A DNA stretch of 63,746 nucleotides, counting the filler, from Licmophora abbreviata (taxonomy: Eukaryota): the NCBI GenBank assembly GCA_900291995.1. It is 18 parts of 18 records of this genome, joined end to end, with 100 filler letters (N's around TTAATTAATTAA, not from the genome) between each part and the next. Parts side by side here need not be neighbours in the genome. Positions count along the whole stretch, not along the records: positions 33,125 to 40,284 come from OLMU01001627.1; 17 more parts are not named here. One strand, 5' to 3'. Below, one piece after another: positions 1,344-48,158 of the stretch. Position 1 is the stretch's first letter, and each line of letters starts with the position of its first letter. The translations under genes and the position numbers were made by a program. A model generated the notes under the pieces. It saw only the letters and a program-made list of their open reading frames with translations, was not told the DNA's origin and made no database searches.

Positions 1344-3022
1344 TTAACCAATGCCTTTGCTGACAATGTCCTTGGGGGTATAGCTACGGCCGTCCCAGTA
1401 GTCGCAGCTGTCGCATGTCGCTTGACAGAGATAACTCACGTCCTGCTCCTTGCCACAGTGTCTGAGCTTGAATGCTCTGCTCTTCCCAGCCACCCAGTTA
1501 CAGTCTTTGTACCTGTTGGCAGAGTTGATCCATATGTTGTAGCTATTGTCATTCTGGCAGCTGCCGTTGCCACTCGTATCCTTCTTGGGTGCGTCAACGA
1601 GGTCGTAGCTACGGCCTTCCCAATAATCGCAGCTATTGCACGTTTTTTGACATAGATAGCTCACATCCTTCTCTTTTCCGCAATGCCTGTTCTTGAAGCT
1701 ATTACTTTTCGTCGCCACATAGGCACAGTCTCTATACTTGAGGTTGTTGTTGATCCAAATATTGTAACTGTTGTCGTCATCGCAGGTACCACCTCCTGCG
1801 TTGTTGCAGCTGGCGGGTGGCTGAGAAGAGAGTTTACAAATCTTATCATCAATCCAATCGGCAAAGTAGCTGACTCGCGTATAGCCGCCTGGAAATGTAG
1901 CTGCAACGAGAGAATAAAACGGGTTGATAGTTTTGAATCAACATGAGTCGAGTGGATGGTTACTCAGTATAGACCGATCTATGACACACTCACTGTAAGC
2001 GCATTGTCCGCCAAAGGAAACGATACCGACTTGGGTGTGCTGTCCGTTGGCAATTCGCACGAGAGGACCGCCAGAATCACCGAAACAGCTACCCTTTTGA
2101 CTCCGTGCGGCACACATACTTGTATCGGTGTCGATTGCGCCGAAGTAGACGAGACTGCACTGCGTGTTCGAAACCGCATCGAGGGTGACTCGCTGGAGTG
2201 TCTTCGGATACAAGTTAGAACCGCCACCTAGAGTTCCAAAACCAAGGGCAACAACGTTCTGACCAGTCTTTGGACTATTCTGGGCTCGATTCAGTTTGAC
2301 AGGCTCAATCGAGGTGATGAACTTGTCAAGTTTCATGACCATGATATCGTTCTGAAAGCCGCCATCATGCAAGTTGTGGGTGATGACGTCGATGATTGTT
2401 GCCTCCACGCTGCTCGGACCACTGTAAGTGCTCATATCTTTCGGGTCTGTCGCCGCACGAGCGCCAACTACAACCCTCTTGTCCAGAAAGTTGGCGGTAC
2501 AATGAGCAGCAGAGAGGAGAATGTCCCCGTGAACAAGCGACGCGCCGCAAAATGTGTCGGTCCAACTGATGAGAACCCAATGAATTTTACCGTGTTTGTG
2601 TTGTGTAAGTGAGTGTGGAGAATCAAAGGACACCGCTGCATTGATGTGTATGCAGTAAGCATCTTACGATTGATAGGAACTTACATGGTAAAATATGGAA
2701 ACGCTGTTGGTCCTGCGTTGGTGCCACCCACAATACGACTCTCGTCTAGTGGATTCAGAGATGTAACGATTGATGTTGCGTTGACCACAGAAGCTACATG
2801 AAAGGCGCTCAACTCTCCATCGAGAAGTTCATTGGCATGTCGATGATGTCGTGATTTCACGCGGCGACGCTGACGACGATGCTCGCCCTTATGGGTGATG
2901 CTTCTAATGAGATCGCTGTCCTGGTTGAGTCCTTCGTTGTTGCCGTCGATTCGGGCAAGGATGACTGTTGGAGCGGCAAGGATGAAAGCGAGGGTCACCG
3001 TTCGTTTTAAGAATGATACCAT
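1344..3022 (-). CDS. Secreted S1 (trypsin-family) serine protease with two C-terminal Cys-rich (ShK-like) repeats
   Basis: Exons 3022-2685, 2565-1994 and 1900-1344 join in frame across GT-AG introns. Signal peptide MVSFLKRTVTLAFILAAP, activation site R-IVGG, triad motifs SAAHC, DIMVMKL and GDSGGP, then two ~60-aa six-Cys repeats. Confidence 0.9.
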
Positions 3023-3383
3023 GGCATTGACTGTTGTCGTTAATGTGGACGATGGAGACGAGCAATGAATGTGATGATGAGAAGCGATGAATATGGTGAA
3101 GAGTGAAGATGACTGTGACATCGCCGAATTGAACCAAGTTTGTGTCTCAAAGAAAGATGTGGCGTGATCACACGCACGGCGGGCGCTCGAAAGATACTGA
3201 TGATGTCATGACATTTTCAAAATGACGTTTCGACGCATGAACTCGCAGCCAAAAAATTGTTCCAATTGTCTTTGGATGCGGTGTGATTGCCCACTCCTTC
3301 TGTCTTTGCTGTTGCCTTTCTGCAGTCTTTCCTCTCGTCGTCTCTCTCCCAACGAGCTCAGTTGTCTGTTTTTATATAAAAAG

Positions 3384-5192
3384 ATGGAAGATTCTCCGCT
3401 CAGTTTTCTGCTCCCGTTCAAGCTCGACGTCGACCCACGCGAGCCACTCTTGCTGTTCGAAGTTGGTGGGAACGAGTACGGCTTGTATCCTCCCAGTATC
3501 CTGTTTTGGGTCGAAGTTCTAGTTGTAAGTTTGTGTATAAGAAGGTCTCGAGTACAAAGGAAGACGCTCCCGAGTCGTCGCGATCTCACGTAACTGATGC
3601 ATGCATGTCTCGCGCTTCACCATCATCATCAGTTGGTCGCCATGCAGGCCGCCCTTGCGGCAGGACTATCCATCCTAACCTACAAGTTCATTGTGTGTCA
3701 GCGCGGCAGTCTTATATCCTACCTTGTTGGATACGGTTGGATTCTTCCCTTTTGGATCATGGTACCTTCCTACCAGATTATAGCCTTCGATATCCGCAAC
3801 GCTGTCATGAGATTTTCTCTGTCGGGCATTCTGCCCACCATTGGTATCTTTCATACTACTGAAGGTAAGGAGCAGAAATCTTGTGAGAGGAAAAATCGAT
3901 CTCTTCTTGCTGATTAGCTTCGTGGGACTCATGCCTCTCTCACACATCATGACGATCCTGTCTTTGTGAAAGCCATGTACGGCTTCGTACCGCCGCATGC
4001 ACGTGTCTCTCTAAACGCCTATGCCCTGTACTGCGGCTCACCCATGGAACTCGTCGTGGACGCCAAATCGGGCAAGCACGTCAAGGCCACCTTGCGAGAT
4101 ATCGCAACGCATTTGCTTCGATTTGTAGGATACATGTGTCTACTCGGCGCCTTGCATTCGTGGATGGAACCTTCGCACTTTGAACCCTTTGGGGCGATTG
4201 GAGGACCGTGGTATGATATCCAACGACTTCTGAATCCAAGACAACTTGCCAACAATGTAGCACATGCTGGTGAGTGGCTGGGGACGGTCGAGAATGCGAA
4301 TGTGTTGCAATGGAAGTGATTCGTATTTATATTTTAACTGACGACACGCACTCCTCGTTCTCGATACTACTACCATAACTTCCGCAATTGTCATCATTGT
4401 TCGCACACCTCTCCCACCAGTCCTCTTTCAAATGTACTTGGTGACGTTTTGCGAAGGCCTCTTGGCAGCAACAGTCGTTATAACGACTTATAAGGCGGAG
4501 GCTGTCATGGAAAATGCCGTCTTGACGTCTCGTTCACCGTCCGAGTTTTGGGGCAAGCGATGGAATAAGTTGATTCACTCGGTACTCAAGGTGAGCGGAA
4601 GATTGTGGTAGTGCGAGTTGCGTGTAGCTCCGTTGCACTAATGCATGACTACTGTTTTTACTGTTTAGAGAGGCGTGTATTTGCCGATGCGACTGTCGTT
4701 CCCCAAGGCTGTCGCAGTGTGCGCAACGTTCGTAGCAAGCGGGTTGTTTCACGAGTGGCTCCTATACAGTACGTAGTATGATGTGCAACCACGACGAGAG
4801 TATGGACGTGCTGTATCTACCATTATCAAATAACACACAATTGTTCTCTTCTTCTATTGTTTGCACACAAAGATGTTCTTTTGGTTGCTGGACACGAGCT
4901 CAACGACAAGGGAGACTGCAATCCACCCAAATGCTTGGCTCCTATCTATGTCGCTTCCACTGCATTTTTCATGTGGAATGCTCTCTTGATACTTTCCGAA
5001 TTTACCATTGGTGGTGCATCGATCTTTTCTTGGATCTCCAGAAGACTGCCCACGCCTGTCATATCCATGCTTGTCGTCCTCTTGGCGGCACCCATGGCTC
5101 ATTGGTTTTGCGAGTCGTACGTCAAGTCTAACTTCTTTCTGCATGGGGGCATTGGATTTCCAATGGTTCGAGCAATGACAAAGCGCGTGTAG
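3384..5192 (+). CDS. Membrane-bound O-acyltransferase (wax-synthase/MBOAT_2-like), multi-exon
   Basis: Hydrophobic exons with donors at 3525, 3865, 4270, 4591 and 4770. Motifs SRSPSEFWGKRWNKLIHSVLK (~4528-4590) and ASGLFHEW (~4736-4759, catalytic His). Internal exon boundaries were only partly verified. Confidence 0.8.
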
Positions 5193-5486
5193 ACGTTTAA
5201 TCCTCTATGGATGTGCTTTGGCCTGGCTCTTGTGTGTCGTACAAGGAAAGTGCAACTGTGTGTTCCTCTCATCGGACCTGCGTCGTCACCAAGATCCACT
5301 TGAAAAGATCTTTGCGTAGAATCAATACTGACCTCTACACGCACGTAGATCTCACAAACAAACCCAGTACCGTCTATACGTCGCACCGTCACAAAGAACA
5401 TGGCATGATATTATTCAAGATGGCGAGAACACAAAATTCTTTGCAGTCGGTGTGTTGTGTGCCGCCGTGTTCTCATCTTCATCAGC

Positions 5487-7391
5487 ATGGGAAACAACAC
5501 TTCTTCCGAGTCCTCCTCGTCTTCTGCCCGTCCCAACCTTCGATCCTTTGGAAGGACGGGTGCGTTGGGATTGAATCGACGAGAATTGGACGAGCGTTGT
5601 CAGCCAAGCGGGTACGTACAGTGCGATCCTTCCCAGAGACTCAGTCATGACGCCCGTGAGCTATTTTCCATGAACCTGAACAAATAAATAAATACGTCGA
5701 TGTAGACTTTATTTCATAATTGAAATGACGTGTACTATGTCTTGGATACTTTTCTGGTGCTTTGGAAATGTCCATGATCCATGATGTTCTCTTGTCCATG
5801 GACCACCATGCTGCTCTTTGTTTCTCACGTCTCTCCTGTTAATACGCGCTTCCTCCACCCCAGGCTATACCCCTCTTGTCAGTGGGAAGACAAGGCGATT
5901 CGCCGTTTGATCGGAGACGGCAAACTCGCTCCACGCTTGAAGGGCCATGATGCCCGCACGACCATGTCAGATTGCGAGTGTCCCATTTGCTTTCTGCAGT
6001 ACTCCCAAGTCAATACGACCCGATGCTGCAACGCCCACATATGCACGGAGTGTTATCTCCAAGTCCGCTCGCAACGAGAAAAACACTGCTCGTGTCCCTT
6101 TTGCAATCATACGAAACTCCAGGTGCTTGTCGCGCAGCGGATGGATACCAAGGCGGTGGAAGAGAGGACCATGGAGGAACAGCGAGTGATCGAAGCGACG
6201 ATTCGAGCTAGACAAGACACCAGTGAGAAAAAGGATGACACTGCGAGAAAGACATCGCCAATCAGCACGGGTGAGGCTACAGCAACGAGTCTCTTCGGCA
6301 CAACGCCTCCCACGACCGTCACATCGGGAGGCTTCGGTTCGTCCATTGAACAGAGTCCTCAAGCCCGCTTGCTGCGAGCCCGTTCAGAGAGTTTGAGCAG
6401 TGCGGATCCGGAGTCACTTACGGAAGATCACTTGTTGTCAGCGCTCGCCATGACGGCCGACGATCGTCGAAGCTTGGAAGAAGAAATGCGCGCCCAGCAC
6501 ACGCATCCGGTCGCGCGTCGAGTGGAACAAGAAGCGGAAGAACGACGCATTGAACACGAACGCCACTATTATCGGAGTAATGGTGGGCGTATACGAGAAC
6601 AGCGGGCGGCAGAAATATTGGCACGCTCGTCTCGTATGACGCGTAGGCCGCGGTCCGGAAGGCTCATGTCGGCGGGTAGTAGTACTCGCAATTGGAATGA
6701 TATTGTGGATGCCTTTGAGAGTGGAGGAAACGGAGAAATCCAGTCTTTAGATGATTTGGTAGTCCTTGAGGCGGCGATTGTTCTGAGCATGGAGGAAGAA
6801 GCACGGAGTCGACGGGGAGAGGGGACCTTCGATGCGTCACAGCATGCAAGGGATGGATTTCCACTCATCGAGCGCTTTTTGTCATCCCGTAGTCACGATC
6901 TCAACCACGCTGGTGACGACGACAACAACAACAACAACAACAGCACCTCCTCTGCGGAGCTCTCCGAATCGTTGCAGACTCTAGCGCGGCGTCTCAGCAG
7001 CAATCGTCGGGCTTCCTTAGACCGTGCCTTGTCTACCCCACTCTTTGCTTCTGGTGGCAGTGACTCGACATTGCGAGGTATTAGCGAAGCAGAGCAGATC
7101 GAAATGGCCATTGCGCTCAGTCTCCAAGAGTCTGCCGCTCCGACTGGTGCCGACGCGGAACAAGAAGATGACGAGACACAGGAGTCGAATCAAAACTCGT
7201 TCCAGCCCGATGACGGTGTTCATGCACTGAACGCGGACAATGATACAACGCCTACGGACGAGCTCAACGCGGCCGCGTCGACTCTGGAAGCTATATCGCT
7301 GGTAGAAGAAGAGATAAATGAGGGCGAAGATGGACTCGCTGTGGATCAAAGTGTCGGCGCCACCAGTCGACGGAGTTCCAGCTCACGATGA
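5487..7391 (+). CDS. GW2/DA2/Sip5-like RING-type E3 ubiquitin ligase
   Basis: Exon 1 (5487-5611, MGNNTSS...QPSG) joins exon 2 in frame across intron 5612-5863. Exon 2 reads LYPSCQWEDKAIRRLIGDGKLAP...ECPICFLQYSQVNTTRCCNAHICTECYLQV...CPFC. UIM-like segments LEAAIVLSMEE and EQIEMAIALSLQE follow. Confidence 0.85.
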
Positions 7392-32234: not shown

Positions 32235-34898
32235 ATGACGCCGTCCCACCTCCTTTCGATGCTCCTAGTCACCGCAGCACTTCTTCTGCCGGGACAAGTC
32301 GCTGCGCAGAGCTGCACTCTCTGCGGAGACGGCAACTCTCCCCCTAATCCAGGGGTCTCAGTTTCGGACTCTACCCTTGACGAATACGGCGCAGAGACTT
32401 GCGGCGAGCTCGCAGCCCTTCCTGAGATTCGTGCCTTGAACTTTGGAGACTGCGACCAACTTAGGGCTCTGGTGGGCGTCGGCGAGTGCGCCTGTGTTCC
32501 AAGCGAAGACGTATGTACAGTCTGTCCTGACCGATCCTTCGTTCCCAATCCTGACATCATCCTGGATGATCGGGGGACGAATTGTCGTGATCTTGCGGTG
32601 GTGGCAGCCCTGGACTCGAACTTTGGCGGCGCCGATGCCTGTGCCGACTATCATCTCGCCGGGTTTGCCTGTGGGTGCCCCCTTCCCGATTTCGACAGCC
32701 CTTGCTCGCTGTGTCAGGGTGGAGACGCCTCCCCTGCTCCTCTCGCGACGACTAGTGACGGAAATACTACATGCATTGCGCTTGAACAAGTTCTTCCGTA
32801 CTTACAAGCGGAAAGCGGCATTTGTACGTTGAGTCAGATCGATGGAGCCTTCTTCTGCGGCTGTCCGCCGCCTATTGAAGGTATTTGTGCTACCTGCCCT
32901 GATGGGTCTCTTGTCGACCCTGACATAGTCTTGGAAGAATCGGTTGATTTCAATGTCACTTGCTTGGATGTCGCTTACTTTTACAACAGTTTGGGCGACC
33001 CGGACGACGACTGCTCCTTCTTCTNNNNNNNNNNNNNNNNNNNNNNNNNNNNNNNNNNNNNNNNNNNNTTAATTAATTAANNNNNNNNNNNNNNNNNNNN
33101 NNNNNNNNNNNNNNNNNNNNNNNNCGACCCGGACGACGACTGCTCCTTCTTCTACCTGGAAACAGCTTCGCGATGTGGATGTCCTCCGGCGGTGCCCGGC
33201 GAGACTAGCTGTGATCTCTGTCCAGACGGAGACGTGAGCGATCCGAACATTGTCGTGGAAGAGCTGGACCCAGAGCAAACGTGCGGCGAAGTGGACGCGC
33301 TCATTGTGAATACTCCGCCCCAGTCCGACGCTTGTCGGTTCCTGCAGTCTGCTGCTGGTGTTCCATGTGGATGTCCCATTGCAGATGTAGGATGTACGAT
33401 TTGTCCCGACGGATCAAGCTTGCCCGATCCATCGATAAGCATTGGAGACGACTTGACATGTCGCGATGTACAGGTCACGGCCAATGCTGATGCCAGCGAC
33501 GAGTGCGATCTCTTTCACTTGAACGCGTTCACTTGTCAGTGCCCAGCCATCGAAGGAGGGTGTACGCTCTGTCAGGACGGCAGTGCTCCTACTTTACCGG
33601 ATCTCGAGATAGGGTTTCAATACACATGCCAGGATCTGCTGAATGACGCAGCCTTCATCGCTGCGGACTCGGAGCTCTGCGAAAGCCTCCAGTTCACAGG
33701 CTCGACTAGCTGCGGATGCACTCCCCTGAATGGCCCGTGCAAAGTCTGCGCCGACGGATCTGACGTACCTGATCCAGGATTCGTCATTGATGACGAAGGA
33801 ACAACGTGTGGAGCCATTCAATCCTTACTGTCGTTTGAAGAGGAGGGCGCATGCACCGATGCAGAGTATGCGGGCGCCCTGTGCGGATGTCCGCCGTTGG
33901 CGAATGGTGGTTGCTCCGCGTGCTTCGAAGGTGCCAGTTTCACGGGCGTCCCACAGGGCGGTGATGGGGATAATACCGAACTGTGTATGATGCAGGACGA
34001 GCTTCTTGGTGCAATTAGCGGCGACTCGGACATTTGCGCTGCCTTTCAGGGTGCAGCCTTCTTTGAGTGCGGATGCCCCGATTTGCCCCCGATACGCGAA
34101 AACTCCCTGTGCACACTTTGTCCCAACGGGGAGGCCCCGGAGTTTCTCGATTTTTCCTTCCCCGGCTCGACGGCTACATGCGAAGATTACTACGTCGCTG
34201 CGACATTGTTGACGGAGGAGGTGGACTGTTTCGATCTGCAGGAAACTGTTGCCGCTTTGTGTGGCTGTCCAGGTGTCTCACTCCCGAATCCTTGTACCGC
34301 GTGTGAGGGCGGATCTCCGATCCCTAATCCCAGTCTGGAGCTCATCCCCGGCATGACCTGTGAGGATTTCATTCCGATTGTACTCTTGGAGGGTCAGGAT
34401 CCCGACGCTTGTACGAGTTACCAAGCCACGGTCGGGGTGTACTGCGGGTGCGACAACCCCTTGGCAAGTGAGGGAGCCTGCCGCATTTGCCGCGGAACCA
34501 ATCTACTTTCCGACGCCACTCGACTTCTCGGTGATGGCACAAACGTAACATGTGGACAGGTCGAGTTCGAAACGTACGAGGGGGACTGCGGCGCAGCCCA
34601 ATCTCTGTACTTTGACACATGCTGCGACACAGAGGCTCCGACGCTGACTCCGAGCATGACTCCTTCTGTAGCCCCATCGGAGCTGCCTTCCGCCGAACCC
34701 TCCTCTGCTCCAAGCACTGAGCCCTCCGCTGTTTCAAGCACCGAACCCTCCATTGCGTCGAACGCATCGCCTGTTGCTGAGCCCGCGACCGAGCCACCTT
34801 CGTCGGCCAGTAGTGGCGCACTTGCGATGGTCGATGATGGTCCCTTCCTCGTAGTACTTGGATTGGCCTTTATGTCGACTCTTGTGTGTGGTCTTTAG
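32235..34898 (+). CDS. Secreted/surface Cys-rich repeat protein (CxxCPDG...TC...CGC units), ~844 aa, with a hydrophobic C-terminus
   Basis: Signal peptide MTPSHLLSMLLVTAALLLPGQVAA, many ~55-60 aa Cys repeats, a PS/TE stalk and a hydrophobic tail. A 29-bp overlap on each side of the spacer at 33025 joins the two ORFs in frame. Confidence 0.85.
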
Positions 34899-35053: not shown

Positions 35054-38000
35054 TTAGACGAGTTCCACCATGTCCACGCCGGGAGGAAGCTCAACACGCG
35101 GGGGAAGTTCTGCGAGTGATGTCGATGGCTGAATCTCATCGCTTGGCCAGACAAAGATGCGCGACGCTGGTGCCCCTTGCCACACACTGTCCGCTTCTAT
35201 AACCTCTCCTGTCATGGCCAAACTCTTTTCCAACAACATCGATCCGGCTTCCATATGCACTCCCTGTTGTATGCGTGAACGGGAGCGCAGGGTCGAGTGA
35301 TCTTCGATGACGATCTTAGCCAATTCAAAGTTCCCTCGTGTGTTTAAGTGGCAAACTATCGATGAACAGTCCATCACACACCGATCTCCAATTGTGACCA
35401 AATCTGGTTCTGGCATGTATGGATCGCCGCCAGTGGGGTATAGGCAGCAGTCCTTTCCGATCTTTGTGCCATTCCATCGAAAGTACTGAGTCATGAATGG
35501 CGTCCCGCAGATGAAATCAAGAATGTTGAAACGATTTAGTTTGCGAAGCTTCCCGATGATCTGATACATTTCCCAACGCTGTGCATACGCAGATGAGTCA
35601 TAATTGTAGCGACCTTCTTGTCGTTGTCCCATGATTCCCCACTTGACCGCCAAGTCGATGCCCAGCCAGGCAACAACTCTCAGAAGGTGGGTGACGAAGA
35701 AAGAGTTCAAGATCGCAGCGTACACCGTCAAGAACGAGTACTGGACCTCGTCGAAGTCCCGATACGCATTCGGAAACCCGTATAACAACGCTGCGGCACC
35801 ATGTACGGCGCCGAGAATTGGCAGCGTATGGAACGCAGCAATAAAAGACTGAGTGACCCATGTGAGAAGTACAATAGCGCTCAGCGGCAAAACAAAGTAA
35901 GAGGCCTCGCGATTGTAAAACGCTCTTCCGAATGGGCGAAGCGTCGACTCGTCTCCTGTCATAGGTAGATCCTTGGGCTTAGCATCCGCGGACCGCAGAG
36001 CCCCCTCGAAGTTTGTCTTCGCTCCCTTTTCAAGGCAAACGGGCTGGCATCCTTTCGAACCAAACCATACGCTACCTTCGGTCAAGTGCCAGCCCTCGGG
36101 ACAGACAGAGTTGGATCCAAGAACCGCATTCTTCCCTAGAGTACTCCCAGGTAAAACGACGCAATTGTCTGAGACGTTCGACCCCGCGCAAAGTACAACT
36201 TTCTCGCAGGAGTCTATGGTCGCGCAAAAGATCGAGGAGCGAGAGCCGAACACAACGTCATCGCCTATCTCGAGCAGCTCAAATTCTCCCGAGAAAACTG
36301 GCTGATTTCCGGGCCAGAAAACTCGTTTTCCGACTTTTGCGCCCAGCAGACGGTATAGACAGCTGACCAATTCGTAGTGTCGGCCCAATAAGTCGGCAAC
36401 TTCCTGCATATTCTGCCGAGAAAACAGTGTTGCCGAAAGCCAATGGCGAAGTAGTTGCCATTCAGACCTAGTGTCTCGTGGTCCCGGCTGGAATTTGCCA
36501 ATCACGCACCATTTGACCAAGATGGCAAGCGCCATATACACTAAAGGCGACAGGATTGACTTTGCAAGTCGAATTCCAATATAGAAAGGAATGCGTCTTA
36601 CATCGCAAAGCCATCGAAGCAGGTCACTTGTATCATCGAAGCTCTTGTCCTCGTCCCAAACTTCTCGCAGCATCCAGAGAACGACTAACAGAGCCGGAAC
36701 ATATGAGATTGCATCGACTGCAAAAGTTATAGGAGCACCGAACAAGAGTTGCGTGAAGAGAGTTGGCTCTGGGATCATTCTGCGGTTGACACGAGCATGT
36801 TTCACGTCCAGGCTTGGTCCCACTTCGTAGCTCGACGTGACAGGTCCGAGATGACCGTCGTCTGGGATCGACGTAAAGGGCGCGACAACGGATCTTGCAC
36901 CGACACTGGCATTGTTGCCGACAGACACCGGCCCTAAGATCATGCATCCATTATCGACGCCAAAACCGCGTACCGTCGAGTACTCAATGGCTGCCGAGTG
37001 ACCAATGTTTACCAAGTCAAACTCAGCCACATCCGCTTCGAGGCTTATCCGTGCACCAGAACCCACTTTTGCCCCAAGCAGACGATAGTAAATGTTAAGG
37101 AACATTTCGTTCGAGCCCCAGATGCCACGTCCCAATAGCTTTCGGCATACGTCTACGAACCACCAACGAAGGTAATAGCTGCCCCATAACGGATACCGGC
37201 CTGCTCGGTATCGACCAATCACAACCCACTTGATGGAAATGAAGATCAAGGGCGTCACGGTTACCCATATGAGATGGTAGGCCAGCAAAACCAAAATGAA
37301 GTGAGCCAAATTGTGCTCCCCAGGGGTCCGTTTCGACGTTACCAGTAGAAACGAGAAGAAAAGAAAGAACCGTGACACTTGCCAGATGGGAAACACGACA
37401 AATAATGGAACGAGCTGAAACACGGAGCCCAGGAACGACCCTTCTGGTGCCCATCGCGTTGCGGTGAAGGGGGTACCTGTCAGGTCGATATCCTTTTGAT
37501 GGAAGGTAGAGCCTGTCACGCTCGACATCGCAGCGATACTTCCCTCTGGTCCCGGAGACACGCAATCTCGGCGTGACGGCATTGATGACTGAAGAGACAG
37601 AAGTCCTCCCATTTCCATTGCTTCCTTCTCTCGTTCTTGGATTAGGCTTGCCATGGCAATGCAAGTAGAATGATGGAACACTTCCGCTCCACTAAAAAGC
37701 ACACCGTGTCGCTTTCGAATGCGGCTCGCCAATTGTGAGGCAAGCATGGAACTTCCACCCAAATTGAAGAAGCTGGTCTCCGGTGCCGGCAGGCAGTCCA
37801 GGTCCAGTAAGTCAAGGAACAGCTGCTGTAGGTCTTGCACAAGAGGGTCATCATGACAGCCACCGCCGCCGTTCTTTTTCGCCTCGGCTTGTTGCAGAAT
37901 GTGTCCGATAGCATCGCTAGGTTTCGGGTGCGTCAAATCAAGGTCCGACCGGATGGGGTTCTTAGCCTGCACAAAGTGCGAAGGCACTGCGTAGCGGTGC

Positions 38001-40269
38001 AAGATTTCTCTCGCGACATGAACCGCGTGGTCCAGTTCTACCTCGAATACATGACAGACCAACGCACCGAGTCGACTTGGGTGTGTCACGACGACCAGCT
38101 GCTGGCCCGAATCTATCAGCAATGCACGGCAAAGTTGTTCCTGGACTTCAATTGGAGACACCGTCACCTGTTCGCTGGGAATCGATACATGGATTGGCGT
38201 TCCCTGTCTTGGGCATCTAGCGTGGAAGGTTCGTTCGATCGGATACATGGTATCATTCAGCTCCGGCAGACCAAGTCGATGGCCTAGTTTGACTCTCAAT
38301 AACTTGTTTGTGTGACTCTTGGGCAACGCATCCATAAAGACCAGACACTGTGGCCACTTTGGATTGGCAAGCTTGCTAGCCAAGAACTCGTGCAAGGTGT
38401 GCAGATCGATCCGCGGTCGATCCGAGTGCTGCACAACCACAATGCCGACAACTTCCTGTAAGACGTTGTGGAGGGCCGAAAAGGCAGCGCATGTTTTAAC
38501 GTCCGGATGACTGACGACCGCCTCTTCGACCTCCATGGGACTAATAATTTCGCCTCCACGGTTGATGACCTCCTTCGAACGGCCAGTAATGTATAAATAG
38601 CCTTCTTCGTCCATGTATCCCAAGTCGCCAGTGTTGAACCAGCCTCCTTCCAGAAAAGTCTCGTCCTGAGCTGCGCTCGGCTCCAAAGCATTCTTTCCGT
38701 ACCCTCGAAAGCACGGCGCGCCCCGAACACAAATGGGTCCTTCCGTCCCGTGTGGTAGTGGCTGGAGCGTTGTTGTGTTCAAAATACAAACTTGCGGTCC
38801 CACCGCGACCCCCGATGTGCCTGGCTTTTCCAAGTTGTAGTGCGCGGGTGGACTGGATATCGGCATACACTCTGTCATTCCATAGCTCGGCAATATATTT
38901 GCCTGGAAGGCATCGCGGAGCTGTCGCGCCAGAGATGGCAATAGACCACCCGCAGCGTTCGCAATCATACGTAGTGGAGGAACCTCAGTCAAGTGCTCTG
39001 GCTTGCTCTGTAGAATCAATTGATGCATTGTCGGTGCAGCATAGTACCAGGTGAAGCTCTTATTACCCTTCTCCAATAGATCCCAAAAGATATCTGGATC
39101 AAAGGCAGGGCAGCAAATGACGCAACCGCCGGACAAGACCGGAGAAAAGACTTGGCGTACGATACCTCCCACGTGAAAGAGCGGCATTAAGTTGCAGTTG
39201 ATGTCAGAGGACGTGAGATTCCAACTGAGACTGATAATAGCAGCAGCAACCATAATATCGCCGAGGCAGTGAGGAACAATCTTTTTGCTTCCCGTCGTCC
39301 CCGAAGTAAACAAGAGCAGTACAGCGTCGTCGTGAGAATTGGCCAAGAATCGGTCGAACCGTGCCAAGCGATCCTCCGATTTCAGATGTTGTGAATCAAG
39401 GCGACTGAGATAACTTCCGGCCCCGACATCTGCCTCGGCGTCGGTCCTACTGCTATTTGGTACACTCGGACTTTGAGCGGGACGTGACGCTACAGGCGAT
39501 CGTGGCGGAGAAAGCGAACGTGGCTTGCCGTTTTGATTGCTCACACTGTCGTCGTCATCAGCGTTGTGGCTGTTGGTTTTGCTCGATTCGACAAGTTCGA
39601 AAATACCAGCCTCGGTTTCGCTCGGAACAAGTCCAACAAAGGGTAAGTTGAGTTGATCTGCCAAGTCTTGAATATGCTCAAATCCTGAATTTCCTGCGCC
39701 GCCAAAGCTAGTTCCAGGGGCTGGCCCGAAAATGACATGGGCCTCGCACCGTTGAATGTCCGCCTTGAGTTCGCTCAGCGCGCCATTGGCGTTGAGAGGG
39801 ACGCAGGTAGCCCAATTGGCGATGGAGAGAATGCTCAAGGCCAGCTCCGGTCCATTCGGAAGAACCACGGCGACTACAAGTAATTTAGTGCAAAGGAACA
39901 AAGCAAAGTTGAGATTGACCTTCGGTCCAGCGCGGCACTCTTTCTCGTACACATTGCCCCTCTTTTACTGTCTGATCCCAACTTACTTTTGTGTCCCTTT
40001 CCGAAACCCAAATGATGAAGAGCGGGCCCAAAGTCCCTGAGAACAAAGTCTCGAATACGATCATGAGTAATGCTACTGCGCCCATCGATACTTCCCAAAG
40101 CCTGGCGATCACTGTGCAGCAAGGCAGCACAGAGACTGGGAAAGAGCGGCAAAATCGTCCGTGCTACCTCCTCGCCGTCGATGGCACCAGAAGGCTGAAG
40201 CAAATGGCGACAGGACGTCAGTAGCGGCGAAGAGTCGTCAGCTTGAACAAGCGCCATGTTTGTCAACAT
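35054..40269 (-). CDS. NRPS-like membrane synthetase: adenylation domain + carrier domain + three TM/beta-helix terminal repeats (Pls/PosA-type architecture), ~1700 aa
   Basis: Exon 40269-39987, intron 39986-39874, exon 39873-35054; the junction reads HKIAVVLPNGPE. Adenylation motifs FTSGTTGSKK, SYGMTE, FNTGDLG, GRSKEVINRGGE and LPKSHTNK. Carrier motif FFNLGGSSML. Three KWxxxG...YRLLGAKVG...ExDLxxIG repeats ending in WQGAPA. Confidence 0.9.
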
Positions 40270-40384: not shown

Positions 40385-40920
40385 CCCCAGGAGCCTGGAC
40401 GTCTGCATCCGGCTGGCTCACGGCCGCCACCGAGTGCGACTGGGAAGGAGTCACGTGTACGCGCGGCACAGTCGTGGGTCTGGACCTTGCCGCAAAGGGG
40501 CTGACGGGACCTCTTCCGAAAGAGTTGGAACTGCTGACCGACCTCTTCCTCTTGGATCTCGGTGGCAATGGTCTCACCGGTCCGATTCCACCTGAGCTTG
40601 GAAGTCTCCAGAAACTTGCCTTTCTGGATCTCGAAGGCTGTGATTTGTCGGGACCCATTCCAAAAGAACTCGGCGGACTCGGCAAGCTGCAACAGCTCTT
40701 GCTGAACGGAAACCCTGGTATTGTTGGTCCCGTCCCAGAAGAATTCGGATCCCTCGCCAGCATGTACATGCTCCAGCTTCAGGGTACCGATCTCATTGGC
40801 AGCATGCCACGCAGCGTTTGCGAGCTCTTTGAGCAGGACACCCTCGGTGCCGCACGACTGCTTTCTGCCGACTGCGCCAAGCTTCGATGCAGGTGCTGTA
40901 CCGAGTGCGCGGATCCGTAG
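40385..40920 (+). CDS. Leucine-rich repeat protein, 3' fragment (5' end lost in spacer)
   Basis: WL...ECDWEGVTC cap, plant-type LxLxxNxLTGPIPxELG repeats, and a C-terminal ADC...CRCCTEC. Confidence 0.85.
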
Positions 40921-41740: not shown

Positions 41741-43273
41741 TTAGAGTCCAACCTTGTGCATGAGTCCCTTAACTTGGTCAATTGGACTAACGAACTTGGG
41801 TTTGAATCCGTACAAAGGAAGACTTCCAGCCTCGGGGATCTTCGCCTCATACGTACCCTTGCAGTGCAGCTTTTCCATCGACACAGCACAGCGTTCGACC
41901 ATGGACTCTTCCGCCTTGCGAATCCAAACACGAGGGTCGTAGAACTTCTTGTTGGGCTTGTCCGGGCCGGTGGGGTTTCCAATCTGTCCCTGGAGGTAGT
42001 CGTGCTTGTCGGCCTCAAACTTGCGAAGTCCGTCCCAGTAAGCCCACTGCGTGTCCGTGTCAATGTTCATCTTGACCACACCGTGCTTAACAGCCTCCGT
42101 TATCTCCTCGTCAGTAGATCCGGAGCCTCCGTGCATGACCAGGAAGATCGGATGAGTCTCGTCCGTTCCAAGCTTCTCCTTGGCGTACTCCTGGTGCTTT
42201 CCAAGGCGTCCGGGCTGGAGCGACACGTTTCCCGGCTTGTAGACTCCGTGGACATTTCCGAAGGCAGCAGCGATGGAAAACATGTCTCCAATCTTACTGA
42301 GTGCCTCGTAGACAGCATAGACCTGTTCAGGAGAAGTGTAGAGCTTCTCAGGGTCAACTTCTTCATTGTTGACTCCATCTTCTTCTCCGCCTGGAAACGA
42401 GTGTGCGGGGATAGAGACGCAAGTGAGTGAGAAGGACTCGTCGTCGACAAAACAATGCCCATCGCATCTCGACTGTCACCGCCGCCTTTTTCAGATACAC
42501 CTAAAAATTGACTCACCAGTGATTCCGATTTCCATCTCCAGCCAGATCTTCATCTTTGCAAGTCGCTCAAAGTACTTGCAGCAGATGGCGATGTTCTCGT
42601 CGTCCGGCTCTTCCGAAAGCTGTAAGCAGAAAGAGAGAACGTTGTCATTCTGAGTCGAGTTCCCACGCGTAGCAATCTCGATCTATCTGCACTTTAGGAG
42701 ATTTCCTACCGATAGACACTTACATCGAGCATGTGGGACGAGTAAAGCGGCTCTCCGTACTGCGCAAAGTACTCTTCGTCGGCCTCAATCATCCCATCGA
42801 ACCAGGGCAAGAGTTTCTTGGCACAATGATCACTGTGCAAGACAACGGGAATCCCATAGTAGGGTGCCATGGTGCGGACATGCAAGGCCATGGCGACAGC
42901 ACCTGCAGCAGAGGTGTTCGGGTCTTTCGTGGATTTTCCGGCAAAAAAGGTTCCTCCGCCGTTGCTGACCTGAATCATGACGGGTGAGTTGTACTTTTTC
43001 GCGGCTTCCATGGCGGCATTGCAGGTGGACGAGCTGAGCGTGGAAACAGAGAGTTTCAGGAGACACAACGTGAGATTGTGTGTATGATTCGATTCGTGTA
43101 CCAGTACGAGACTCCTTGTTCGGACCCAAATCCAAAATTAGATGAAATTGAACTCACCTGGTACAGTTGAAGGCCGGAATTGCATAGCCGTTATCCTTGG
43201 CATGTTTGAGAAGCTTCATGAGGTCATCTCCGGTGACGACTCCCGGGGGAACGATATCTGAAAGGGACGACAT
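41741..43273 (-). CDS. FBA: Class II (type A) fructose-1,6-bisphosphate aldolase, probably cytosolic
   Basis: Exons 43273-43158, 43033-42724, 42619-42517 and 42390-41741. Motifs YAIPAFNC, LHSDHCAK, SSHMLDLSEE, EMEIGITGGEEDGV, FGNVHGVYKPG, HGGSGS, KMNIDTD and YDPRVW. No presequence. Confidence 0.96.
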
Positions 43274-43573
43274 GGTCAACAGCAGGCAGGTGGCAAATGT
43301 TCGCTGGATCTTGGTATCTTTGTGTTCGCGAAGTAGGATAGGTTCACGTTGGAACATCGCCTTCGCTTTGTTCTTCCTTCTGCTTACGTTGCGTGTGTGC
43401 CAGTCTTTATGAAATCTGCTGGGAGTATCGTCACACAGACACAAATTTAAATCTGTATTAATTTCTGTATACTTCCCAATATTGCATGCGTTGGGCCGGC
43501 GTTGGGCCTTTTCGACATCATTCAGGAAAAGAGGAAAACGAGATTGCACTTCACTTTTTGGACGTCCATCACC

Positions 43574-44832: not shown

Positions 44833-47800
44833 TTACATCTCCGTACTACTTGTACTCGAATATCGATTCGCACGGAGCCGACGCACCGCTCCCGATACCG
44901 TAAAGCTTATTGTCAGGCCTCCAAGCATATTACCGCTTGCTCCAGCTTCATCATAGCCAAGGGCAGAGAGCATGTATAGCCCATTCGGTGGGGTGCTCCA
45001 CTTGGCGTAGTCTCCGCCAGAATCACCTGCGATTGCGAATGGCGCGAAGGACTCGACGTTTACGATCTTTCCATTTAGTACGAAAAGTATACTCCCAATT
45101 GTCCCCACCGTATCTGCTCGAATGTTAACATTCGGAGTCATTGACAAGTCGATAGTGTCTCCCCAAGAAAGGACTGTGATGTCTGTGTCCGTTTCGGAAT
45201 CAACTAACGTGAAAGCTGTGATGGAGGGTTCGATGGCCGTGTCCTCAGTCGGTGACGGCGTTGGCTGTACTGTTGGCCTTGAAGTAGGGGGTGTCGTATC
45301 TTCGGTAGGAGACGGCGTTCGTTGTATTGTTGGACTTGTAGTAGGAGATGCCGTATCCGTAGGTACGGTTGGATGTAGTGTAACATCAACAGTAGGTACA
45401 CGAGTCGGTGCTGAAGAAGGTTGCTCAGTTGGAGAAGACGTTAATGCAGAAGTGGTGGGCTGCATAGTCGCACTAGCAGTAGGCGTGGTCGTCGGCTCTA
45501 TTGTAGGTTGGCCAGTAGGAGAGGAAGTATCTTCGTACTTGGATGGCTTCCCAGTCGCTTCAACAGTAGGTGAGTGCGTCGGCACTGTTGTTGGCCACAA
45601 AGTAGGAGCTGGTGTCTCATTTTGCAGCTCGGTTGGCGAGAGAGTCGTCTCCGCAGATGGTGACAAAGTGCTCGCTGTCGGCTCGGGAGTTGGTTCGAGG
45701 GTCGGCACGGAGCTCGGCTCCGGAGTGTCCAGTTCGGTTCTCACTTGGACAATGGTCATCTGGATCGATAAACTATTTCCAGGATTGCTCTCTCCATCGT
45801 AAACTATAGCAGTGAGTGTGTGAGTGCCCAGACTTTTGGGGTACCACTGATTGTAGTTTCCACTGTAATCTCCAGCCAACGCGTAGGGCGGGAAACTCTC
45901 TTGCCACTGCAGAATGCCATCAATCATGAATACAACACTACCGATGTCGCCTGCTGTATTGGCACGTATGTTTATCTTTGGTGTCTCGTTCAACACAATC
46001 ATGGTACCGTCCGTCAGTGTAAAAATGTCAAGGTTCGTCGCTGAGTTCACCAAAGTAAAACTGGTAACGGATGGGCCATTCGTTGTAGGCGATGACGTCG
46101 GATCAGTCGTAGGAGCGACCGTGAGTTGGAATGTCGGTTCCAGCGTAGGCGCCACCGTCGTTGGTCTGAAGGTTGATTGTACAGTTGGCGTTGCGCTAGG
46201 CAATTCAGTTGACCTATCAAAGTCGGTTGTGTGCTGAATTCTATGGTCGGAGACACGGTGGGAAGATGTGTCGGTTGAGCTGAAGGGTAGACGGTCGGTG
46301 GCAGTTGAAATCCGTTGGGATCTGTCGGAGGTTGCACAGTTGGTACCGGCGTAAGCGCAATGGTTGGAAAGTCAGTTGGTCCCGGTGTAGGCTGTCCAGT
46401 TGGCGTCAAGGTCAATTCGGATGTCGGCAGTGCACTTGGGTCTAAAGTCGAACCAAGCGATGCTTGTGTCGAAGGTTGAGCAGTTGGGGGCAACTGCCAT
46501 CCATTTGGGTCTGTTGGTGGTTGCAGCGTCGGCTCCGGCGTTTGCGGGATAGAGGGAACCTGCGTCGGTGTGGGTGACTGCGGCTCACTTGGTTCCGGTG
46601 TTGGCAATGTAGATGGCGTCGGAGTCTCCAGTGGAGTCGGGTCTGGCGTCGGCTCTTCAGTGGGCGTCGCGGTTGAAGGTCGCTCCACAATGTCTAGGCC
46701 AATTGAAAGGCTTCTGCCCTGGAGTCCGTTCCCATCGTAAATTGTTGCCTTTAGCTCCTGTGTACCCAGCTTGAATTCCCAGTCATAAAAGTCTCCATTG
46801 GCGTCACCCCCAATTGCGTAGGGCGCGTAACTCTCAGTTCTAACCAAAATCCCATCAATGTAGAATTGTACGCTCCCGATAGCGCCCTGAGTATTGGCCA
46901 CGATGTTGATCTTTTCCTCTTGGTTCAATACCGCGACCTCGGCTCCATCCAGCAGATCCACAATGTTGCTGTTCGTCGCAGAGTCCACTAAAGTGAAACC
47001 AACAATTGATGGCTCCGCAACAGTAGGTTGCTCCGTCGGATCATCGACTAGTGGCACGAGACTTGGTCTGCTTGTGATTATTGACTCGGAACTCGGAGCT
47101 TGGCTGGGGGGCAAACTTGGTTGCTCCTCCATCAATGTGCTTACGGCCCGTGCAGTTCGTTCCCCCACGATGAGCATCGATGCCGGGTCATAGTGGTAGA
47201 AACACATCAAGTCGTCCGTTTTTACAAACTCACACTCCCCGTCGCTCAAACAGAAAGCCTCTTGAGCTGCCACGACTAGCTTTCCCTCTACACTGCCGCT
47301 CCTCCAGCAACCAATGCCAATGATAACGACAGGGATATCTGATGCTTGTTCGTGAGTCCCCGCAGGATTTGCGCGGAAAATTTCGCCACGGACGCTGTTG
47401 ATAAAGGACGCCAAGTTGGTCTCATAGTTCTCAGGATCTCCTTGACTGAAAGTGTCTTGTGAACCCTGGAACCAGACAAAGGCTTCAATTGGACAATCTC
47501 CAGTTCTACAGTTGGAATGAATGGATTCCATATCCTCGATGCGGTCGAAAAGTGCCTTCCAGTGAACGTCAGTCTGATCTGACCACTCGGCAAGAGTGGT
47601 TCCACCGGATGCTACCTTTGCCATCCCATAAGTTTCACTACCGAGTACATTGTTCAAAGTGTGAGCCATCATGAGTTCGACTCCATATGGCGATCCGCAT
47701 CCGGCATCCGGATTGACCTTGTCCGCGGTAGTCAAACTCCCGGTGAAGGCGTAGGTCGCTGGATGATCCATAGTACAAACGACTTCATCGACGGGATTCA

Positions 47801-48158
47801 GAATGTTGGAGTAGATTTCTCCATCATCGATGGCTAGTAATGAATCGACTTCAAAGGCAGCGACTGCGTCGTCGACAATGAATTCGACGGGGTCGTTAGG
47901 CACTTTCTTGCATTCTTCAATCAAGTCGGCCCGTCGCGATTTAGAGTTCCCAACAAGGATTTCAACCAAGCTCTGTAAAGACTGTCCCGGTGCATTTTCT
48001 GGATGGCTATTGGTATATCGAATCCCAGCCTCGCTTGGATTGCCCACCATGTTAGACTGCCCCGCCATGAGAAGCCACGGCATCCGTGCATTTACACTGT
48101 GGGGCGTGAAACATAGAGCCAAAGTGAGAGCCCAAAAGGGGTAGAGTAACCTGGTCAT
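44833..48158 (-). CDS. Secreted SGNH esterase (SASA / carbohydrate esterase family 6-like) with three Ig-like modules and Pro/Thr linkers; one frameshift near 46225 as assembled
   Basis: Signal peptide, LLMAGQSNMVG, KVASGGTTL and FVWFQG. Three ~100-aa FTLV(D/N)S.T...INI.ANT.G.IGS...ES..P(Y/F)A..GD..G modules separated by PT repeats. Confidence 0.82.

Follow-up and report, generated by a model that had tools for sequence, protein, structure and literature searches.

A putative poly(malic acid) synthetase of diatom type with a CoA-ligase-like loading domain in Licmophora abbreviata

The organization of the protein and the residues of its substrate pocket suggest that a gene in Licmophora abbreviata encodes a poly(malic acid) (PMA) synthetase. 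The window analyzed, 63,746 nucleotides of contigs joined end to end with filler between them, carries the gene on its minus strand. The spliced product is 1,700 amino acids long, with the order adenylation (A) domain, second A sub-domain, carrier (T) domain, and Pls-like membrane/beta-helix block. The loading domain is of the CoA-ligase type. From family membership and pocket residues, we consider with moderate confidence that this is an L-malate-loading synthetase of the PMA synthetase family. The enzyme type is already known. By sequence the gene is of diatom type, since its nearest named relatives are diatom proteins (Seminavis, Stephanodiscus, Nitzschia, Cylindrotheca, and Mayamaea).

Gene structure and domain organization

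The gene consists of two exons with a short predicted intron between them. Positions below are those of the window, and residues are numbered from 39871, the first full codon of exon 2.

39987..40269, minus strand: exon 1 (283 nt), with the ATG and about 94 N-terminal residues of the A core, from the open frame and splice scoring
39874..39986, minus strand: predicted intron of 113 nt (GTAAGT...TTGTAG), the top stop-free GT-AG pair against four homologues
35054..39873, minus strand: exon 2 (P0001), an open frame of 1,605 codons plus stop
38582..39871, minus strand: A core of the AAE3/Pcs60-derived CoA-ligase type, from PF00501, PDB matches, and the pLDDT profile
39155..39175, minus strand: HVGGIVR, with His233, which sits where NRPS have Phe-Asp, and Arg239 (39155-39157)
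38948..38962, minus strand: ANAAG, at the AAE3 positions Arg286-Ser287-Cys288-Ser289, from the alignment to 5ie0 and the pocket list
38861..38884, minus strand: YGMTECMP, with Pro at the AAE3 His319 position, from the alignment and the pocket list
38273..38566, minus strand: catalytic A sub-domain, in which Lys523 (38303-38305) corresponds to AAE3 Lys500 (PF13193, 4.2e-8)
37886..38170, minus strand: second A sub-domain, predicted folded and without the catalytic Lys, including YAVPSHFV (profile, model, structure search)
37634..37840, minus strand: carrier (T) domain with the phosphopantetheine Ser708 at 37748-37750 (PF00550, 2.4e-9)
35147..37429, minus strand: Pls-like C-terminal polymerase block with three hydrophobic pairs and three hexapeptide (beta-helix) repeats (PF00132)

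The A domain begins about 95 residues before 39873, across the predicted intron and within exon 1. Position 39873, the upper limit of the range in the sequence-only reading, is the first base of exon 2. Exon 1 matches the N-termini of P0003 and of P0448, a paralogue in the same genome, and its ATG is the presumed start codon. The host genome is 29 Mb in size and contains introns. In one sequencing run of uncertain kind, 0.10 of the words were common, 5 of 30 bins were covered, and no intron joint was found.

The functional motifs of the A and T domains are intact in sequence. Pfam domains were found at residues 1-391 (AMP-binding; PF00501, E value 1.5e-41), 447-523 (AMP-binding_C), and 680-742 (PP-binding), followed by hexapeptide repeats. 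The ATP motifs and Lys523 are intact, including the P-loop FTSGTTGSKK at 39281-39310 (minus strand), and the pLDDT profile shows a disordered insert of about 55 residues in the A core (approximately residues 109-163). The carrier Ser708 is invariant in all 159 aligned members, and the host genome has three PPTase matches. After the T domain there are six hydropathy peaks in three pairs (residues 811-888, 1046-1129, and 1326-1410). Searching the C-terminal block against the PDB by sequence gave short beta-helix matches only and no Pls-type C-terminal structure. A search of the ESM Atlas found clusters with the same architecture.

The window holds several other coding regions. Convergent with the synthetase is a 568-residue Cys-rich repeat ORF (33192-34898, plus strand) with a Ser/Pro-rich tail and a hydrophobic end, for which no Pfam match was found. 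Neighboring contigs have a short LRR protein (40387-40920, plus strand) and a class II fructose-bisphosphate aldolase with introns (41741-43275, minus strand). An esterase of the SASA family, apparently secreted and with Ig-like and Pro/Thr repeat regions, lies at 46047-48158 and 44833-46203 (minus strand). No pathway link was seen among the neighbors on the other contigs of the window (LRR, class II aldolase, DnaJ, and phosphoesterases).

The loading domain is a CoA-ligase-type domain

PDB matches, a fold search, and a phylogenetic tree place the A domain with acyl/oxalyl-CoA ligases and not with amino-acid A domains, as the sequence-only reading had proposed. The motifs it quoted are present in the minus-strand frame: LMPLFHVGG (His at 39173-39175), FTWYYAAPTMHQ, and INRGGEIISP (from 38566) lie within its range, but YAVPSHFV (approximately 37970-37995) is just beyond it. 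By sequence, three oxalyl-CoA synthetases, from grass pea, Arabidopsis, and yeast, give the best PDB matches (6qjz, 5ie0, and 8aff; E values 9e-61, 2e-60, and 4e-53), and the next ligase has an E value of 5e-37. With a model of residues 1-750 (50 sequences, mean pLDDT 86.2), the fold search was led by these same entries. The window protein shares with AAE3/Pcs60 the fold, the motifs PLFHVxG, TWYxAxPT, and INRGGE, and the catalytic Lys. It also has His at the NRPS Phe234 position, as they do; a passage of PMC3098103 describes His in CoA ligases where NRPS domains have Phe followed by Asp235. Unlike the free-standing AAE3/Pcs60 enzymes of about 55-60 kDa, it is fused to a T domain and a membrane polymerase.

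The family forms one clade (SH-aLRT 100) in a tree of 51 of the 79 extracted A domains, from which 28 redundant sequences were dropped; the tree was made by a quick method with SH-aLRT support only. This clade is sister to the oxalate-CoA-ligase-type domains (SH-aLRT 97) and far from the Pls domains. A topology joining the Pls A domains to the family was not rejected in an AU test (p 0.152; the Pls branch is long), so the root position is not proven. An HMM of the family A domain scored 16-43 bits with Pls, 128-228 with other ligases, 324-351 with oxalate-type domains, and 444-571 with family members, which had themselves contributed to the HMM.

A polymer of the poly-lysine type is a very improbable product. 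In Pls and PosA, as in the window protein, an A-T arrangement precedes three TM pairs and three hexapeptide beta-helix blocks, and the third block has a conserved His (HLNTRG in the window, HLFHDR in Pls). TIGR02353, the Pls/PosA terminal domain, matches in three stretches (E value 6e-68). The arrangement and this match would fit a synthetase for a cationic polymer of lysine, ornithine, or Dab. However, the score of 229.8 bits is under the curated cut-off of 423.1 bits, whereas a canonical Pls reaches 806.5 bits, and the C-terminal blocks fall in separate clades. The A domain belongs to another ANL subfamily, with HVGGIVR in place of FDASCEE, and there is an extra A sub-domain. All nine canonical Pls compared, from actinobacterial genomes, have FDASCEE, and these are the proteins that score 16-43 bits on the family HMM. 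Asp217 and Glu221, described as required by PosA in a portion of PMC10522769, are absent from the window, and an Arg is in the pocket instead; in Pls/PosA enzymes the Asp serves the alpha-amine and the Glu the side-chain amine. A CoA-ligase-type pocket without this Asp and Glu favors a monomer other than an alpha-amino acid and a product different from poly-lysine; both had been anticipated from the sequence. The only family member studied, the polymalate synthetase, has a hydroxy-dicarboxylic acid as its monomer. Instead of a polycationic amide, the product is predicted to be a polyanionic ester.

The substrate pocket differs from that of oxalate ligases

The residues that bind oxalate in AAE3 are mostly replaced in the window. 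According to excerpts of PMC8905533, the oxalate pocket of AtAAE3 comprises Val215-His216, Cys288-Ser289, Ala313-Met314, His319, and Lys500, and Ser289 and His319 are kept in oxalyl-CoA synthetases only. When the window protein is aligned to 5ie0, these positions are Val, Gly, Ala, Ala, Gly, Met, Pro, and Lys. The AAE3 residues His216, Arg286, Ser289, and His319 are replaced by Gly, Ala, Ala, and Pro, with Ala307 and Pro337 at the two oxalate-specific positions. Oxalate is an unlikely substrate because Ser289 and His319 are replaced.

It is correspondingly improbable that the A domain activates oxalate like AAE3/Pcs60 and that the membrane block transfers oxalyl groups. Several points would fit such an activity: the nearest solved relatives are oxalyl-CoA synthetases, the oxalate-type domains form the sister clade, several fungal members are labeled "Oxalate--CoA ligase" in databases, and bacterial oxalate-type A domains fused to T domains exist. 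These bacterial A-T proteins, however, keep both His216 and His319 (119 of 120 in each case), showing that fusion to a T domain alone does not remove the two residues. Oxalate also has no hydroxyl or amine through which it could homopolymerize.

A new Arg in the pocket is a feature of the family. Arg239 is located six residues after His233, where oxalate-type ligases have Gly, Ala, or Ser (119 of 120). By 4CL/DhbE numbering this position presumably faces the base of the pocket, and Arg239 is predicted to hold a second carboxylate. In a conservation count on 159 proteins, members had been selected by two motifs, which makes the count circular for positions within them; it was therefore repeated on 150 proteins chosen by C-terminal similarity alone. 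The pocket is covered by 44 of these, most of the others being fragments. Among the 44, Arg239 is found in 43, His233 and Pro337 in 42 each, and Lys523 in 41, and none has an NRPS-type FDxS domain. Two proteins of this set with Asp instead of His have decayed A domains. At the sequence level, the signature H-V-G-G-x-x-R, N-A-A-G, M-T-E-C-M-P separates the family from oxalate ligases and poly-lysine synthetases.

Relationship to the PMA synthetase of Aureobasidium

Wang et al. reportedly described the PMA synthetase PMAs of Aureobasidium melanogenum (QHD40385.1 / MN551082) in 2020. Sections of later articles (PMC11905612, PMC11286673, PMC9210645) present it as a 5,049-bp NRPS-like gene encoding A, T, and C-like domains and six TM helices, with no TE. 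In size and parts the window gene agrees with this account. Four PMAs knockout primers were designed on MN551082 from A. melanogenum ATCC 62921 (PMC9909216, from its Table S2). Translated, they give GFVIESWGL, ENDVLDT, LADRH, and LPIDLLF, which map in order to residues 299, 481, 636, and 820. All four peptides are present on P0376, P0415, and P0417, and the cluster includes named A. melanogenum members. QHD40385.1 is not among the 30 members listed for two Aureobasidium clusters, so the link to PMAs is made through the primers. Their ordered placement on the Aureobasidium cluster identifies the family as the PMA synthetase family.

The window protein resembles the Aureobasidium proteins over almost its whole length. 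It aligns with A. melanogenum P0430 at 35% over 1,463 columns (814 bits); the score with a canonical Pls is 56.6 bits. The lengths are similar (1,700 and about 1,690 amino acids), the domain order is the same including the second A sub-domain, neither has a TE, and both belong to one clade in the A-domain and C-terminal trees (SH-aLRT 100 in both). They differ in that the window has the disordered insert in the A core and its genome has two copies of the gene, and in diatoms the second sub-domain has lost its G..D end. Reviews of PMAs, in the portions concerned, place the six TM helices at the N-terminus, whereas in the sequences the hydrophobic segments come after the T domain.

The pockets of the two proteins are nearly identical. 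The A domain shares 188 of 340 residues (55%) with Aureobasidium P0376. The 14 pocket-proximal positions read HVGRAANAAGMMPK in the window and HVGRSCNAAGMMPK in P0376; 12 are identical, and the differences are Ala279/Ser and Ala304/Cys. The window string is found in 115 of the 120 diatom-side matches listed, and the P0376 string in 110 of the 120 matches listed on the fungal (ascomycete) side. From family membership and pocket identity, L-malate is the likely substrate.

These differences leave room for another monomer or acceptor, a somewhat unlikely reading in which the enzyme loads a different small anionic hydroxy acid (citramalate, tartrate, 2-hydroxyglutarate, or, speculatively, a sulfonated one) or, rather than producing a free homopolymer, moves malyl or acyl groups to an acceptor in the membrane or outside the cell, for instance a polysaccharide. 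Ala/Ala on the diatom side against Ser/Cys in ascomycetes would fit a change of monomer, as would the C-terminal identity to the Aureobasidium member of only 36%. The one paper found, within the literature searched, to mention both polymalate and diatoms concerns fumarate in Aureobasidium. Parts of PMC10522769 state that Pls-type enzymes of such divergence take different monomers and that trimeric beta-helices resemble sugar acyltransferases. Against this, the substitutions are small, Ser occurs at the first position in the paralogue of the same genome, and the exact pocket string of the window is also that of the Trametes member. Aureobasidium also has the C3 motif H-[LI]-N-[TS]-R-G and the same residues at the remaining 12 positions. 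We keep malate as the preferred monomer.

Under the malate-loading reading, the A domain would use ATP to form malyl-adenylate, with Arg239 on the free carboxylate. The acyl group would then pass to the phosphopantetheine on Ser708 and not to CoA, as suggested by the fused T domain. By analogy with Pls, the three-fold TM/beta-helix block may link the units through esters, the hydroxyl of one reacting with the thioester of the following one, and ester formation by the membrane block has been proposed for the Aureobasidium enzyme (PMC11905612, in part). With an acid-activating loading domain, the product is likely an acidic polyester. The second A sub-domain has no catalytic Lys to offer; it probably serves as a structural spacer or gives the T domain a docking surface.

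A second A sub-domain, degenerate in sequence, is predicted to be folded

The sequence-only reading took the stretch before the carrier domain to be a degenerate remnant of a second A sub-domain. It is degenerate in sequence, but its predicted fold and its presence at the same place across the family indicate that it is not debris specific to this gene. Residues 568-662 alone had no Pfam match, and they scored 12.2 bits on an HMM made from non-diatom members only; the best shuffled sequence scored 6.9 bits among 499 reported of 500 run. The mean pLDDT is 94.5, the values in the model are 94-98, and the modeled order of helices and strands is that of the first sub-domain. All 50 structural matches listed are C-terminal domains of ANL enzymes (best Z 8.4, rmsd 2.3 over 79 residues), and the Foldseek E-values are 0.01-0.07. 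The A10 Lys is absent in the six sequences aligned and in a set of 24.

The second sub-domain may be either a leftover of an NRPS-type ancestor or a copy of the ligase's own domain. A profile of six sequences matched A sub-domains in the PDB, with NRPS first (LgrA best stretch 3.5e-6, GrsA 8.7e-6), and in the structure search the NRPS rows have Z of 8.4-7.6 and AAE3 has 7.5, a difference within 1. A non-diatom profile gave probabilities of 93.9 with Pls sub-domains, 95.0 with oxalate-type ones, and 43.4 with the first sub-domain of the family itself.

Distribution and evolution of the family

The family is found in diatoms, fungi, a diplonemid, and scattered bacteria. Searching with the A domain gave 1,373 proteins of 882-2,809 amino acids at E <= 1e-20 among 5,504 candidates, and the best 120 of the 1,373 are 63-82% identical to it. 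The named members include chytrids, one Mucoromycete, Trametes, many ascomycetes (those of Aureobasidium are about 1,690 amino acids long), and the diplonemid Artemidia. Many of the fungi with family members are not, to our knowledge, PMA producers. In prokaryotes, 5 of 80 loci have the full architecture or a close match (two Novosphingobium, Kitasatospora, and two Planctomycetota) in a scan of 40 of the 64 parts of the collection. Among the ORFs at these bacterial loci (L011-L015), no obvious pathway partners were found. One Kitasatospora genome combines a gene of the PMA-synthetase type with a canonical Pls (TIGR02353, 806.5 bits).

The C-terminal blocks show the same groups as the A domains. 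In a tree of 29 C-terminal blocks, made by a quick method with SH-aLRT support only, the family forms one clade (100), and the diatom, fungal, and bacterial subgroups match those of the A-domain tree, which fits one old fusion. The L. abbreviata paralogue P0448 (contig C3711; positions 1619-6484 of locus L121, minus strand) is intact and intron-free and encodes 1,622 amino acids. It is 76% identical to the window gene in the A domain and 64% in the C-terminal block, and its Ser at position 279 is that of Aureobasidium.

Some relatives depart from the standard arrangement. In the fungal-like members P0223, P0242, P0211, and P0205, decay of the A domain has removed the P-loop, His, or Lys, but the second sub-domain, T domain, and membrane block are kept; these are possibly non-activating partners. 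P0276 (L016:4319-6913) belongs to a large bacterial group in which oxalate-type A domains retain the oxalate residues and occur as fusions with T, T-TE, T-C, or T-hexapeptide. Judged by sequence, this group is a candidate set of oxalyl-loading modules, and it is likely the source group of the A domain of the family. NCBI labels many fungal members "Oxalate--CoA ligase" or "peroxisomal-coenzyme A synthetase", although the oxalate residues are absent.

The biodegradable polyester poly(malic acid), which is of biomedical interest, has been reported from Aureobasidium, Penicillium cyclopium, and Physarum (PMC11905612). A single PMA synthetase has been genetically assigned, and according to PMC9210645 none had been purified. 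The Aureobasidium assignment is genetic, with complementation restoring one third of production and the enzyme "yet to be isolated" (passages of PMC11905612, PMC11286673, PMC9210645). A limited search of the open literature, in its wider form dominated by general diatom papers, found no report of poly(malic acid) or its synthetase in diatoms. It likewise found no report that the enzyme derives from a domain of the oxalate-ligase type whose pocket has changed, or that its sub-domain is doubled, and on NAPAA in diatoms it gave unrelated matches only.

Diatoms may make a polyanion that has been overlooked. We tentatively propose, at slightly less than an even chance, that centric and pennate diatoms possess a PMA synthetase that is intact and often duplicated, and that they make surface or extracellular poly(malic acid) or a kindred calcium-binding polyanion. 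In this proposal the enzyme had a single origin, in which an oxalate-ligase-type domain with an Arg-based pocket took the place of the amino-acid A domain in a Pls-like polymerase and the old sub-domain was left as a folded spacer. If so, the pocket signature would be a marker for polyester synthetases across algae, fungi, diplonemids, and scattered bacteria, and many of these enzymes would now bear the wrong label "oxalate-CoA ligase". The family offers bacterial homologues without introns, suited to enzymology, as well as a probe with which to look for the Physarum synthetase. If diatoms do make poly(malic acid), a major group of phytoplankton would secrete an unrecognized organic-acid polymer.
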